This document shows, one piece after another, positions 10,036-17,224 of a stretch of 22,991 bases of DNA. The stretch is taken from the IMG/VR virus record IMGVR_UViG_2850761752_000006, one strand, 5' to 3'. The DNA comes from a virus. Its lineage: Duplodnaviria > Heunggongvirae > Uroviricota > Caudoviricetes. Positions within the stretch are counted from its first letter, which is position 1, and each line of letters begins with the position of its first letter. The position numbers and the translations under genes are program-made. A model generated the notes under the pieces. It did not search any database. It was not told where the DNA came from and was given only the letters and a program-made list of their open reading frames with translations.

Positions 10036-10314
10036 TTACCTCCAGATCCGTTGCTGGAATGTGCAGGACGGACGCGGTGGCCGTTCGGAATAAGGGAGCC
10101 TGACGAAGATTATCCAGTGACGATAATCGAGACTGAGGGCTTTCTTAATCTCGTATCCGTGTCTGCGGTAGCGCTGAATCAGCCATTCAGCCTGTTCTTC
10201 GGTGCAGGGGGCGTGCTGATACCAGTCAGATTTGAATGCATGAGAACGCCGCCCGTGCCTGCTGGCAGGCGCGGCAGAGTTATCCGAATTGTAAAATTTG
10301 GTATCGTGCGCCAT
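10036..10314 (-). CDS. Hypothetical phage protein upstream of baseplate J (possibly a baseplate-module remnant)
   Basis: ORF 10036..10443(-); the first 43 codons overlap the hok terminator, so the likely start is the ATG at 10314 (MAHDTKFYNS...). Family not recognised. Confidence 0.35.
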   Translation of the reverse strand: MAHDTKFYNSDNSAAPASRHGRRSHAFKSDWYQHAPCTEEQAEWLIQRYRRHGYEIKKALSLDYRHWIIFVRLPYSERPPRPSCTFQQRIWR

Positions 10315-10395
10315 CTGTTTTCTCTGCTGGCGCAGCAGGTGCCAGTTGTTCAGGCTGACGGATGGATTGTAAACCAGAACGACCAGAAAAAACAA

Positions 10396-10413
10396 AACCC
10401 GCCGAAGCGGGTT
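10396..10413 (-). terminator. Rho-independent terminator downstream of hok
   Basis: Minus strand reads aacccgc ttcg gcgggtt followed by TTGTTTTTT; 7-bp GC-rich stem, tetraloop, U-tract. Confidence 0.75.
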
Positions 10414-10481
10414 AAGTGCGGGTGCGTTGAGGATGCCTGACACATCAGCGGTGGCGAGGGATTTCTCCCCCGCCGGGTCTC

Positions 10482-10637
10482 TTACTCCTCAGGTTCGTAA
10501 GCTGTGAAGACAGCGACCTCCGTCTGGCCGGTTCGGATTCGTACCTCGCAGAGGTCTTTCCTCGTTACCAGTGCCGTCACTATGACGGTTAAACAGATGA
10601 CGATAAGGGCGATTAACATCGCCTTTTGCTGCTTCAT
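10482..10637 (-). CDS. hok: Hok/Gef-family type I toxin (HokD/RelF-like, 51 aa); in-frame upstream mok-like extension to 10694
   Basis: MKQQKAMLIALIVICLTVIVTALVTRKDLCEVRIRTGQTEVAVFTAYEPEE is a canonical Hok sequence; the extension MLNTCRLASYVPKGKEKQA resembles the chromosomal mokC arrangement as recalled. Confidence 0.9.
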   Translation of the reverse strand: MKQQKAMLIALIVICLTVIVTALVTRKDLCEVRIRTGQTEVAVFTAYEPEE

Positions 10638-10685
10638 AGCCTGCTTCTCCTTGCCTTTCGGCACGTAAGAGGCTAACCTACATGT

Positions 10686-10750
10686 GTTCAGCATGGATTG
10701 AGCCTCAGATTAATGTTAAGCGTCTTGCAGGACGCGTAGTGTTAACTGGG
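10686..10750 (+). ncRNA. Putative Sok-like antisense RNA over the mok start region
   Basis: Inference from hok/sok architecture: plus-strand TTGCCT (10651-10656), 17-bp spacer, TAACCT (10674-10679) would start an RNA antisense to the mok initiation region. Ends not defined. Confidence 0.3.
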
Positions 10751-10896
10751 GCTTTTCTCTATCTGCCTTTTGGTGTTCATGCCTGAGACAGATAGCCTCA
10801 AGCACCCGCAGTCATTCTACTTAACTAAGATTTCCCTGCAAACCGTTTTTGTCCGGCACAGTAAATATCCAACTAAACCAATAGCGTTCGCTGTAT

Positions 10897-11115
10897 TTAC
10901 CGCCAGTATTCAATGCACATGACCGCCATGAACACCCCTAAAAAAAGGGCATTTATATGTCCAAACATTAATATCAAAACATCAATTTTTTCCATATACC
11001 TTGCTGTGAAGATGATGGGCATACATGATGCGAACAACCAGAACGCAACAAACAAAAACTGCAATGCGTTTTTCATTATTCCCCCTACAATCAATGTGCA
11101 ATAACATTTAAACAC
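10897..11115 (-). CDS. Hypothetical small membrane protein (two predicted hydrophobic helices) in AT-rich islet
   Basis: 72-aa ORF with hydrophobic stretches ALQFLFVAFWLFASCMPIIF and ALFLGVFMAVMCIEYW; surrounding DNA strongly AT-rich. Could be non-coding. Confidence 0.3.
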   Translation of the reverse strand: MFKCYCTLIVGGIMKNALQFLFVAFWLFASCMPIIFTARYMEKIDVLILMFGHINALFLGVFMAVMCIEYWR

Positions 11116-11288
11116 ACCTCAATTTGGCCGGACATATAAATATCTAAACCAGAAAAAATCACTTACATAGCGTTACAAACTCTTTAGTCTAAATACTCAT
11201 CGTAAAACATTCCCCATACTTATCAGTCCGTTCCGCGCCAGGTAGCTTATTGCCTTATCTGGCAACCTATAATCAGGTTTCCGCTTTT

Positions 11289-11712
11289 TCAGTTGGCTGG
11301 TCGTTTAACCGACATAGTTAACCCATTAATCTGGTTGCCGGATGCTGGTGGATTTTCGCGTTTTAGTTGTTCATAAAAGTGCACAGCTTTAACCAGTTCT
11401 TCTGATGTAACCGGGACTGGTGGGGCAGTGAATAAGGCCTGAATTTCATAGTTCGGCCTGTCGTTACAATCCTCTTTTTTCGGTACATATTTCCAGTCAC
11501 CAACCCACAACTCCCCCTGAGAGTCCATAACACCTTTTTTCACGTAGCGATATCGCCACGCTATCGGCTCTGCTTCCAGCGATGCCCGTGCAATTTTGAA
11601 TAACTCGCCCTCTACTCGCGCCATCCCTGAATTGGGGTGGCATTTCGTAATCGCTATTTTTAATTTGGCTTCTTCGATTAATTGTTCTTTTGTTAATTCA
11701 GTCATTTTCATT
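11289..11712 (-). CDS. Hypothetical phage protein (141 aa); IS1 inserted about 10 bp upstream of its start codon
   Basis: ORF 11289..11744(-) starts inside IS1; first native ATG at 11712 (MKMTELTKEQLIEEAKLK...). Family not recognised. Confidence 0.55.
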
Positions 11713-11785
11713 ACCGCCCTTTCAGGCGGCGGTAATGCTGCCAACTTACTGATTTAGTGTATGATGGTGATTTTAAGGTGCTTGC

Positions 11786-12061
11786 GTGGCTTCCATTTCC
11801 ATCAGATGTCCTTCCTGCTCCGCTACTGAAGGCGTGGTGCGTAACGGCAAAAGCACTGCCGGACATCAGCGCTATCTCTGCTCTCATTGCCGTAAAACAT
11901 GGCAACTACAGTTCACTTACACCGCCTCTCAGCCCGGTACGCACCAGAAAATCATTGATATGGCCATGAATGGCGTCGGATGTCGCGCCAGTGCACGCAT
12001 TATGGGCGTTGGCCTCAACACGGTTTTACGTCACTTAAAAAACTCAGGCCGCAGTCGGTAA
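11786..12061 (+). CDS. insA: IS1 InsA
   Basis: 91-aa [46 protein letters not shown]... with zinc finger plus HTH. Confidence 0.95.
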
Positions 12062-12483
12062 CCTCGCGCATACAACCGGGCAGTGATGTGATTGTCTGCG
12101 CTGAAATGGACGAACAGTGGGGCTACGTCGGTGCTAAATCACGTCAGCGCTGGCTGTTTTACGCGTATGACAGGATACGGAGGACGGTTGTGGCGCACGT
12201 CTTCGGTGAACGCACTCTGGCCACACTGGAGCGTCTTCTGAGCCTGCTGTCGGCCTTTGAGGTCGTGGTATGGATGACGGATGGCTGGCCGCTGTATGAA
12301 TCACGCCTGAAGGGAAAGCTGCACGTTATCAGCAAGCGTTACACTCAGCGCATTGAGCGACATAATCTGAATCTGAGACAACATCTGGCAAGGCTGGGAC
12401 GGAAGTCACTGTCGTTCTCAAAATCGGTGGAGCTGCATGACAAGGTCATCGGGCATTATCTGAACATAAAACACTATCAGTAA
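11980..12483 (+). CDS. insB: IS1 InsB reading frame (expressed as InsAB' by -1 frameshift)
   Basis: 167-aa ORF overlapping insA in the -1 frame, standard IS1 layout. Confidence 0.9.
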
Positions 12484-12578
12484 GTTGGAGTCATTACCTC
12501 AGGCGGCCTCCTGATGTTCTGAGGGTGCAGAAATCCCTCCGGTTAAGGATTAAATTTTATTTGCTGTGCTAAATTTAA

Positions 12579-16103: not shown

Positions 16104-16434
16104 ACCAGCATAAATCCGGTAGCGCCTTCCTCCGGGTTTGTGCTTCACTTTATCCCATCTCATTTTTTTACACACAAAATGTACCATAAGCACTTTACAA
16201 CAATGAACGCAAAGTACATTATATACCTGCCACCCACCCCGCCCCACAGAATGCAGGGCAATACTTCGAGTTACCAGGCAGTGGTCAGGGGTTAAGTAGC
16301 CAGCCCGAGGCGTAAGAACATGACGGCAGGGTTCAACTTTAATAACTATGCAGCAGGTTTTTGTTCCGCTACCCCGGCGTTAAGGGGAAATGAGGTCAGC
16401 ATGGATACTATCGATCTTGGGTAATGACTCCAAC

Positions 16435-16938
16435 TTACTGATAGTGTTTTATGTTCAGATAATGCCCGATGACCTTGTCATGCAGCTCCACCGATTTTGA
16501 GAACGACAGTGACTTCCGTCCCAGCCTTGCCAGATGTTGTCTCAGATTCAGATTATGTCGCTCAATGCGCTGAGTGTAACGCTTGCTGATAACGTGCAGC
16601 TTTCCCTTCAGGCGTGATTCATACAGCGGCCAGCCATCCGTCATCCATACCACGACCTCAAAGGCCGACAGCAGGCTCAGAAGACGCTCCAGTGTGGCCA
16701 GAGTGCGTTCACCGAAGACGTGCGCCACAACCGTCCTCCGTATCCTGTCATACGCGTAAAACAGCCAGCGCTGACGTGATTTAGCACCGACGTAGCCCCA
16801 CTGTTCGTCCATTTCAGCGCAGACAATCACATCACTGCCCGGTTGTATGCGCGAGGTTACCGACTGCGGCCTGAGTTTTTTAAGTGACGTAAAACCGTGT
16901 TGAGGCCAACGCCCATAATGCGTGCACTGGCGCGACAT
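16435..16938 (-). CDS. insB: IS1 InsB reading frame
   Basis: Identical 167-aa translation to copy 1. Confidence 0.9.
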
Positions 16939-17132
16939 CCGACGCCATTCATGGCCATATCAATGATTTTCTGGTGCGTACCGGGCTGAGAGGCGGTGTA
17001 AGTGAACTGTAGTTGCCATGTTTTACGGCAATGAGAGCAGAGATAGCGCTGATGTCCGGCAGTGCTTTTGCCGTTACGCACCACGCCTTCAGTAGCGGAG
17101 CAGGAAGGACATCTGATGGAAATGGAAGCCAC
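16857..17132 (-). CDS. insA: IS1 InsA
   Basis: Identical 91-aa translation to copy 1. Confidence 0.95.
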
Positions 17133-17224
17133 GCAAGCACCTTAAAATCACCATCATACACTAAATCAGTAAGTTGGCAGCATTACCCTGCAACCGCTAT
17201 GAAAAAGGCGGGAAAGATGGCATC

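Follow-up and report, generated by a model that had tools for sequence, protein, structure and literature searches.

The hok/mok/sok locus and its reading frames

The DNA considered here, which we call the window, is a stretch of 22,991 nucleotides (nt) of IMG/VR virus record IMGVR_UViG_2850761752_000006 (Caudoviricetes), and on its minus strand, at 10386-10842, lies what is almost certainly a complete hok/mok/sok type I toxin-antitoxin locus of the hokD type, a moron that sits within the early (nin) region of a lambdoid prophage now defective (Table 1). An initial annotation had placed a hok/mok locus at 10386-10900; the locus is present, but its functional part stops at about 10842, and no feature was assigned to 10843-10900. 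It contains the 51-residue Hok reading frame that the annotation had proposed (10637..10482 on the minus strand), which is confirmed by a match to the whole of the Pfam model PF01848 HOK_GEF (model positions 1-42 of 42, E=1.2e-23) and by a match to PHROG 251, 'MokW-like host killing' (E=2.8e-33). The protein is 100% identical to HokD of E. coli K-12, and in near-identical genomes the PGAP annotation names the gene hokD, 'type I toxin-antitoxin system toxin HokD'. The list of open reading frames (ORFs) likewise bears out the proposed in-frame mok extension, of 70 residues (10694..10482, minus strand), which is 94% identical to annotated MokW, is laid out as in K-12 mokC, and is preceded by a Shine-Dalgarno (SD) sequence, GAGG (10706-10703), 8 nt 5' of its start. 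The SD sequence of hok, GGAG (10650-10647), lies inside a hairpin, and the helix that covers it is conserved at columns 158-162/179-183 of the 12-locus alignment described below; translation of hok is probably coupled to that of mok.

The region upstream of the two frames carries the regulatory part of the locus. In an Rfam scan of the whole window it gave a full-length match to RF01794, 'sok' (10807..10632, model positions 1-157), at 115.6 bits and E=4.8e-26, where the gathering score of the family is 59; the model lies on the hok-sense strand and therefore describes the leader of the hok mRNA. This leader, put at about 200 bp in the initial annotation, would extend for 170 nt before the hok ATG and for 113 nt before the mok ATG, which makes the estimate roughly right. 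The transcription start most probably falls on the G at 10807, which is position 1 of the RF01794 model, and the promoter ends 7 nt before it, with a -10 box that is identical in the aligned sequence of phage 933W. At the other end, a terminator scan recovered the hairpin and T tract that had been noticed there (hairpin at 10413..10396), 69 nt past the hok stop codon and kept in K-12 hokD. A lone promoter or terminator match would be non-significant by itself, as 0.5 and 0.6 such matches, respectively, are expected per region. Taken as a whole, the DNA of the locus matches the hokD locus annotated in E. coli FDAARGOS_944 at 99.8% identity.

That the ORF is small is the sole point in favour of regarding it as a chance reading frame, or as a degraded pseudogene that is merely hok-like, and we give such a reading virtually no weight: chance resemblance is excluded because of the Rfam and Pfam E values given above, and the 100% identity to HokD and the presence and covariation of all the cis-elements speak equally against it. 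Disruption of the locus by an insertion sequence (IS) or a rearrangement is ruled out by the collinearity of window positions 9278-11730 with an IS-free copy of the prophage in E. coli FDAARGOS_944 (99.76% identity). The statement that no relBE genes lie nearby also holds, and for the entire window: K-12 RelB and RelE and the closest prophage's RelB/ParE pair, used as tblastn queries, gave no match better than E=0.05. In that closest intact relative a RelB/ParE-family pair sits beside the repressor gene; the immunity region of the window is different and is without the pair.

Table 1. Features of the hok/mok/sok locus and of its surroundings (window coordinates)
Feature	Position	Strand	Basis or remark
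Functional locus	10386-10842	-	reaches the -35 box of the hok promoter
hok/mok promoter: -35 TTTGCA (10842-10837), 17-nt spacer, -10 TAGAAT (10819-10814)	10814..10842	-	sigma-70-like; promoter scan
Full-length hok mRNA, about 416-422 nt, from tac 5' end to T tract	10386..10807	-	predicted from fold and homology
tac (translational activator) box GGGUGCUUGAGG, first 12 nt at mRNA 5' end	10796..10807	-	pairs with fbi
5' hairpin within the tac stem; its 5' arm can instead pair with tac as a small 5' hairpin	10759..10795	-	folds
ucb (upstream complementary box) AAGCCCCA; partner dcb/mok SD (inactive) or tac (active)	10747..10754	-	folds
dcb (UGAGGC), containing mok SD GAGG 10706-10703	10702..10707	-	ucb-paired in full-length fold
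Sok target hairpin (sokT): mok AUG (10694-10692), loop CUGAACA (10691-10685)	10671..10705	-	third hairpin of Rfam alignment
mok frame, 70 codons, in frame with hok, common stop codon	10482..10694	-	ORF list
hok toxin gene, 51 residues	10482..10637	-	PF01848 HOK_GEF; identity to K-12 HokD
Candidate TadA A-to-I editing motif TACG at Tyr47 (TAC 10499-10497), Tyr to Cys recoding	10496..10499	-	motif
fbi (fold-back inhibition) box CCUCAACGCACCC, complementary to tac	10420..10432	-	duplex energy -21.5 kcal/mol
Intrinsic terminator: hairpin AACCCGCTTCGGCGGGTT (10413..10396), then T tract to 10386	10386..10413	-	terminator scan
sok promoter: -35 TTGCCT (10651-10656), 17-nt spacer, -10 TAACCT (10674-10679)	10651..10679	+	identical to 933W/Sp5
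Predicted Sok RNA, ~71 nt, antisense to mok SD, AUG and target loop	10686..10756	+	coordinates from 933W sokW annotation
IS1, 768 bp, 9-bp target duplication (11722-11730 = 12499-12507)	11731-12498		0.9 kb upstream of hok promoter
IS3-family element (100-residue and 272-residue ORFs), cuts DUF968 (ydfU-like) gene at ~9277	8079-9277		downstream of hok
IS1, replaces ~1.8 kb relative to closest intact prophage	16421-17188
IS3-family element, ~1.3 kb, interrupting integrase	19948-21254		ALIL frameshift pseudoknot 20804-20920, 116 bits
IpaH-type effector gene, 608 residues, LRR_TTSS and NEL E3 ligase domains	1636-3462		adjoins tail-fibre and Mu Gp48-like genes

Folding of the two RNAs and the proposed mechanism

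A fold prediction for the leader, suggested as a check in the initial annotation, has now been carried out, and the tac-fbi, tac-ucb and SD-sequestering helices known from the literature were recovered by a combination of folding and covariation. The covariation set consisted of 12 intact loci: six chromosomal or phage loci of the hokD/W class, two from IncY-type plasmids, one hokC and three IncF plasmid hok loci. Compensatory changes occur in 20 of the 70 pairs of the RNAalifold consensus, which contains tac-fbi (UA to CG), the 5' hairpin (AU/UA/GC and CG/UA, with several compensatory pairs at columns 13-21/57-65), ucb-dcb (AU to GC) and the hairpin over the hok SD. The covariation of tac with fbi can be seen directly when the hokD/W and IncF classes are compared, as GGGUGC/GCACCC in the one answers to GGCGC/GCGCC in the other. 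Within 81 distinct homologous mRNAs tac is invariant and fbi has one variable column.

The full-length hok mRNA of the window is unusually stable, with a minimum free energy (MFE) of -171 kcal/mol (z=-7.3 relative to shuffled sequences), and its 12 tac-fbi pairs form with a probability of 0.97-1.0. In the same fold three of the four bases of the mok SD have a probability of being unpaired of about zero, and the ucb-dcb helix that covers them is present in both the MFE structure and the consensus. The alternative pairing is equally visible: in the isolated 5' 63 nt the tac-ucb stem reaches an ensemble frequency of 0.80, and once it is enforced in a constrained fold the mok SD and AUG become single-stranded. 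The energetic penalty for forming tac-ucb is 11.5 kcal/mol in the full-length RNA versus 1.4 kcal/mol after removal of the 3' end that contains fbi. The target loop contains CUGA, which on reading the sequence is a YUNR-type motif, and folds of the hairpin's alleles come to about -12 kcal/mol. At the opposite end of the transcript, the hok 3' untranslated region and terminator (10392-10473, minus strand) gave a sub-threshold Rfam match to IsrK (27 bits, where the gathering score is 50). A derivation of IsrK from the hok 3' end was set aside, because isrK lies downstream of antQ in Salmonella Gifsy-1 and is thus not syntenic with the hok 3' end; the resemblance is probably a generic one between two-hairpin structures.

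On the plus strand, the antisense promoter that had been thought plausible there was found as TTGCCT-17-TAACCT, the same bases as the sokW promoter, and the antisense RNA predicted at 10680-10760 agrees with the interval 10686-10756 obtained by transfer of the sokW annotation of 933W. A generic promoter scan had missed the sok promoter because only 7 of its 12 bases match the consensus. Both this promoter and nt 1-43 of Sok are identical to sokW of 933W and of Sakai prophage 5 (Sp5), and the complete RNA differs from SokW at two positions only, both within the hairpin: 10739 belongs to the stem and 10729 to the apical loop. Sok is predicted to fold into a single-stranded 5' tail (~10686-10699) followed by a long hairpin, with a 3' end rich in U (-28.5 kcal/mol, z=-3.7). 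The Northern probe YO-592 used for sokW matches the window exactly at 10686-10715, and the hokW probe YO-597 matches it without mismatch. In sokW, a change of the -10 box from TAACCT to GAGCCG (primer YO-421) abolished antitoxin activity (PMC8621323), and the box mutated in that work is the same TAACCT that is found at 10674-10679 of the window.

From these elements, and by analogy with hok/sok of plasmid R1 and with hokW-sokW, a mechanism can be proposed. The promoter at 10842-10814 would be constitutive and would produce an mRNA of ~416 nt in which tac is locked to fbi, ucb masks the mok SD and the hok SD is enclosed in a hairpin, and the full-length message would therefore be neither translated nor bound by Sok. 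Slow trimming from the 3' end would then take off fbi and allow tac to pair with ucb, with exposure of the mok SD and AUG and of the target hairpin. As long as transcription continues, the 5' tail of Sok would pair with the target hairpin and the duplex would be degraded; Sok would block translation of mok, and therefore the coupled translation of hok as well. Should the supply of Sok come to an end, Mok and Hok would be translated and the 51-residue HokD would damage the inner membrane. A stable hok mRNA, an unstable Sok, slow 3' exonucleolytic processing and cleavage of the duplex by RNase III have been shown for R1 and partly for hokW. We infer the RNA processing, the relative RNA stabilities and the toxicity in the present host from these precedents. 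The sequence supports this mechanism well, and the pair is very likely a functional one; a demonstrable phenotype at single copy is uncertain.

Several observations weigh against a working locus, and they are best considered together. The -10 box of sok, TAACCT, is weak, with three of six consensus bases. At 10739, which is the lone difference from E. coli FDAARGOS_944 over 701 nt, the window has a C where seven other aligned hokD-class sequences have a T (in the mRNA sense), and this creates a C.A mismatch in one hairpin of the hok mRNA, but a G.U pair in Sok. The tac-ucb stem is absent from the MFE structure of the 3'-truncated mRNA, in which its probability is about 0.07 and it is only near-isoenergetic, at 1.4 kcal/mol above; the MFE structure instead has a small 5' hairpin that sequesters tac and resembles the metastable hairpin described for R1. 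Because the truncated MFE lacks the tac-ucb stem, the refolding step rests on the R1 model. Hok also has a Tyr in place of its second Cys, and its toxicity may be limited unless the mRNA is edited. Finally, Pedersen & Gerdes (1999), in the summary given by bioRxiv 10.1101/2025.08.07.668861, saw neither post-segregational killing nor activation by rifampicin with the intact chromosomal loci hokA, hokB and hokC.

As for editing, the TACG motif at Tyr47 is invariant in the 12 diverged hok loci, and the sequence here is the same as that of K-12 hokD. TadA is reported to recode Tyr to Cys in the hokC, hokD and hokE mRNAs, with about 6% of K-12 hokD mRNA edited (PMC12214031, PMC5630033). A tRNA-like local hairpin at the editing site is not supported, since the local fold is no better than that of shuffled sequences (z=0.55). 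Overexpression of the HokD coding sequence, as reported in a citing text, caused lysis (Wilmaerts et al. 2021).

Relation to known hok systems

The closest characterised relative is hokW-mokW-sokW of 933W (AF125520) and Sp5, with 93% DNA identity over about 440 nt. Like the locus here it is prophage-borne and has mok in frame with hok; the two agree in their tac and fbi boxes, and their sok promoters, Sok 5' tails and target hairpins are identical. They differ in four C-terminal residues of the toxin (TAYEPEE in the window versus VDYESEK in HokW), at the two positions of the Sok hairpin given above and at several in the 5' hairpin. Past fbi the sequences diverge (window 10386-10419), and 933W is without the terminator hairpin shared by the window and K-12, so that the 3' end of the hokW mRNA must form differently. 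The locations also differ, as hokW lies near the right prophage end in 933W whereas the locus here lies in the nin region of a defective prophage. Takada et al. 2021 (PMC8621323) found HokW, which they report as 44% identical to R1 Hok, to be toxic, and found that sokW under its own promoter neutralises it with a partial dependence on RNase III and Hfq. Induction with mitomycin C depletes sokW and yields HokW in a RecA-dependent fashion, and deletion of the locus halves phage release (PMC8621323).

The comparison with K-12 hokD (relF), in the cryptic prophage Qin, is of a different kind. Here the toxin is the same, the DNA is 98.5% identical over 10388-10651, including fbi and the terminator, and the neighbourhood is the same, upstream of the DUF968 (ydfU) and Q genes. 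The homology ends at 10651, 14 nt 5' of the hok ATG, and from there relE and relB stand in K-12 in place of the promoter, tac, ucb, dcb, the mok start, sokT and sok. As the two have only 10388-10651 in common and the rest is replaced by relE-relB, the window holds the untruncated form of hokD, and K-12 hokD is a truncated derivative of a full-length prophage module. The window thus differs from the K-12-type relB-relE-hokD arrangement both in its fully present leader and in having no RelB or RelE homolog by tblastn. Between hokD and the ydfU-proximal region Qin also has rem, in an interval of 423 nt (positions 2102-2525 of the K-12 comparison sequence, L003), where the window has no rem and only 57 nt (10331-10388). 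An ORF of 92 residues in the window (10036-10314, PHROG 1212) corresponds to a stretch that is unannotated in K-12.

The elements of the locus, and the tac-fbi, tac-ucb and ucb-dcb pairings backed by compensatory changes, are also those of R1 hok/sok (parB) and its IncF relatives. R1 differs in being plasmid-borne and in its proven post-segregational killing. In R1, mok lies in another frame than hok, as opposed to the in-frame mok of the window. Relative to the consensus of RF01794, the Sok hairpin of the window is ~16 nt longer. The hokC (gef)/mokC/sokC locus also has an in-frame mok, with a toxin 82% identical to the one here, and the intact hokC of strain F8 has the same tac, a near-identical fbi (UCUUCAACGCACCC) and the same target-loop sequence; it differs in its shorter Sok hairpin and in its place on the core chromosome, by nhaA and dnaJ, rather than in a prophage. 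Several K-12 loci carry IS lesions: IS186 lies ~20 nt past hokC (20 nt after the stop codon) and past hokE, and IS150 lies in the leader of hokA. The window has no lesion of the hokA, hokC or hokE type, and the nearest IS ends are ~1.1 kb away on the downstream side (~9277) and 0.9 kb away on the upstream side (11731).

The initial annotation had singled out an intact locus without relBE as noteworthy, an emphasis that was misplaced. Of 5,426 complete E. coli genomes, 3,927 contain 80% or more of the 451-nt locus, at a median of two and up to nine places per genome, whereas the K-12-type relBE-hokD truncation amounts to 57% coverage of the locus (rows H100-H102 of our comparison). It follows from these counts that an intact copy without relBE is the rule, and the relBE-hokD fusion is a K-12-type exception. 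According to a survey of 2025-26, almost 80% of Enterobacteriaceae genomes contain Hok, and it is enriched in prophages. The family, its RNA mechanism, the toxin (HokD/RelF) and the regulatory allele (sokW) have all been published already, and the copy described here is canonical and ordinary.

The prophage that carries it is decayed. It adjoins tRNA-Ser(CGA) (22013-22101), and with its integrase interrupted by an IS3-family element it is probably locked in place. Of the two IS1 copies, the one at 16421-17188 stands where the closest relative has ydfA, ydfB, ydfC, dicB and the 5' end of an exonuclease gene, and the one at 11731-12498 sits where a phage gene of unknown function (PHROG 660) starts. 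Past the truncated DUF968 gene the RusA, Q, tRNA and lysis genes of the relative L001 are missing; the place of the Q and lysis genes is taken by tail-fibre genes from a different type of phage and by a gene for an IpaH-type E3 ligase. Directly upstream of the hok promoter runs an AT-rich stretch (10850-11290, 36-39% GC), within which a hydrophobic ORF of 72 residues (10897-11115, minus strand) had no match in Pfam or PHROG and is unannotated in the RefSeq relative.

Physiological role and the Sok-recognition segment

What the locus does for its host is harder to say than how it is built. Our best guess is a module that is selfish and stabilising, or else triggered by stress, and that shows little phenotype in normal growth. 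It might also be intact and yet inert, transcribed and perfectly repressed but never activated in vivo, a hitch-hiker in a prophage remnant. The decay of the prophage, with IS3-family elements in the DUF968 and integrase genes, a pair of IS1 insertions and the Q and lysis genes gone, fits such a passive existence, and so does the finding that deletion of hokW-sokW was without effect on normal growth (PMC8621323). We nevertheless consider inertness unlikely, as every regulatory box is strongly conserved across hundreds of prophage copies, the compensatory changes indicate continuing selection on the RNA mechanism, and hokW-sokW did give measurable phenotypes once induced (PMC8621323).

Roles in the phage life cycle seem to us harder still to credit. 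In the Sp5/933W prophages, derepression in the SOS response leads to the loss of Sok, and Hok is made and permeabilises the membrane before holin and endolysin act, with faster lysis and phage release as the result. This has been shown for hokW-sokW (PMC8621323), to which the locus is tied by the 93% DNA identity and by the shared sok promoter and Sok recognition region. A role of this type is very improbable here, and as described for hokW it cannot apply, because the host prophage is defective and retains no lysis or structural genes: past the truncated DUF968 gene there is no Q, holin, endolysin or lambdoid structural gene, and the integrase is interrupted. The immunity region, moreover, is unlike that of the closest intact relative, and the locus lies in the nin region, where hokW is near the prophage end in 933W. 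Abortive infection would be a way of acting against other phages, in which a lytic phage stops host transcription, Sok is depleted and Hok kills the cell before the burst. Exclusion of phages is on record for R1 hok/sok alone, carried by a high-copy plasmid, and it is an improbable role for the present locus. Neither phage exclusion nor prophage retention, the two roles put forward in the initial annotation, has direct support.

One part of the locus stands apart in its variability. Among hokD/W loci that are otherwise near-identical, no other part varies nearly as much as the segment at 10681-10700 (minus strand), which comprises the mok AUG and the loop of the target hairpin and is complementary to the 5' tail of Sok. 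Over the 81 distinct mRNAs, taken from viral contigs, the mean pairwise difference is 0.31 in this 20-nt recognition segment versus 0.026 in the hok coding sequence. Among 120 viral-contig loci there are 21 recognition alleles, about six of them at similar frequency; the mok ATG is present in every one, and the eight commonest of those folded give hairpins of -10 to -13.5 kcal/mol, with the major alleles at a similar stability of -12 to -13.5 kcal/mol. The allele of the window is that of 933W/Sp5. Where two copies share a genome, which was the case for four pairs only, three pairs differ and one is identical, with a chance identity of 0.11.

It is conceivable, although we regard it as doubtful, that the recognition segment is under diversifying selection, and that there are at least six structure-preserving classes of Sok specificity with no cross-regulation between co-resident copies. 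The window carries the 933W/Sp5 class, so that on this hypothesis its Sok might cross-neutralise hokW mRNA made by an incoming phage of the Stx type. If so, the Hok-assisted lysis of the incoming phage would be blunted and the loss of either element could be buffered by the other, which would amount to an anti-addiction or cross-immunity effect between prophages.

The significance of the locus as a discovery is small, and a clean annotation is the useful outcome of the analysis. The recognition segment is the only aspect that may deserve a dedicated study at the population level. For the hok family more generally, the copy described here is a suitable intact hokD locus in which the function of chromosomal and prophage hok/sok could be tested.

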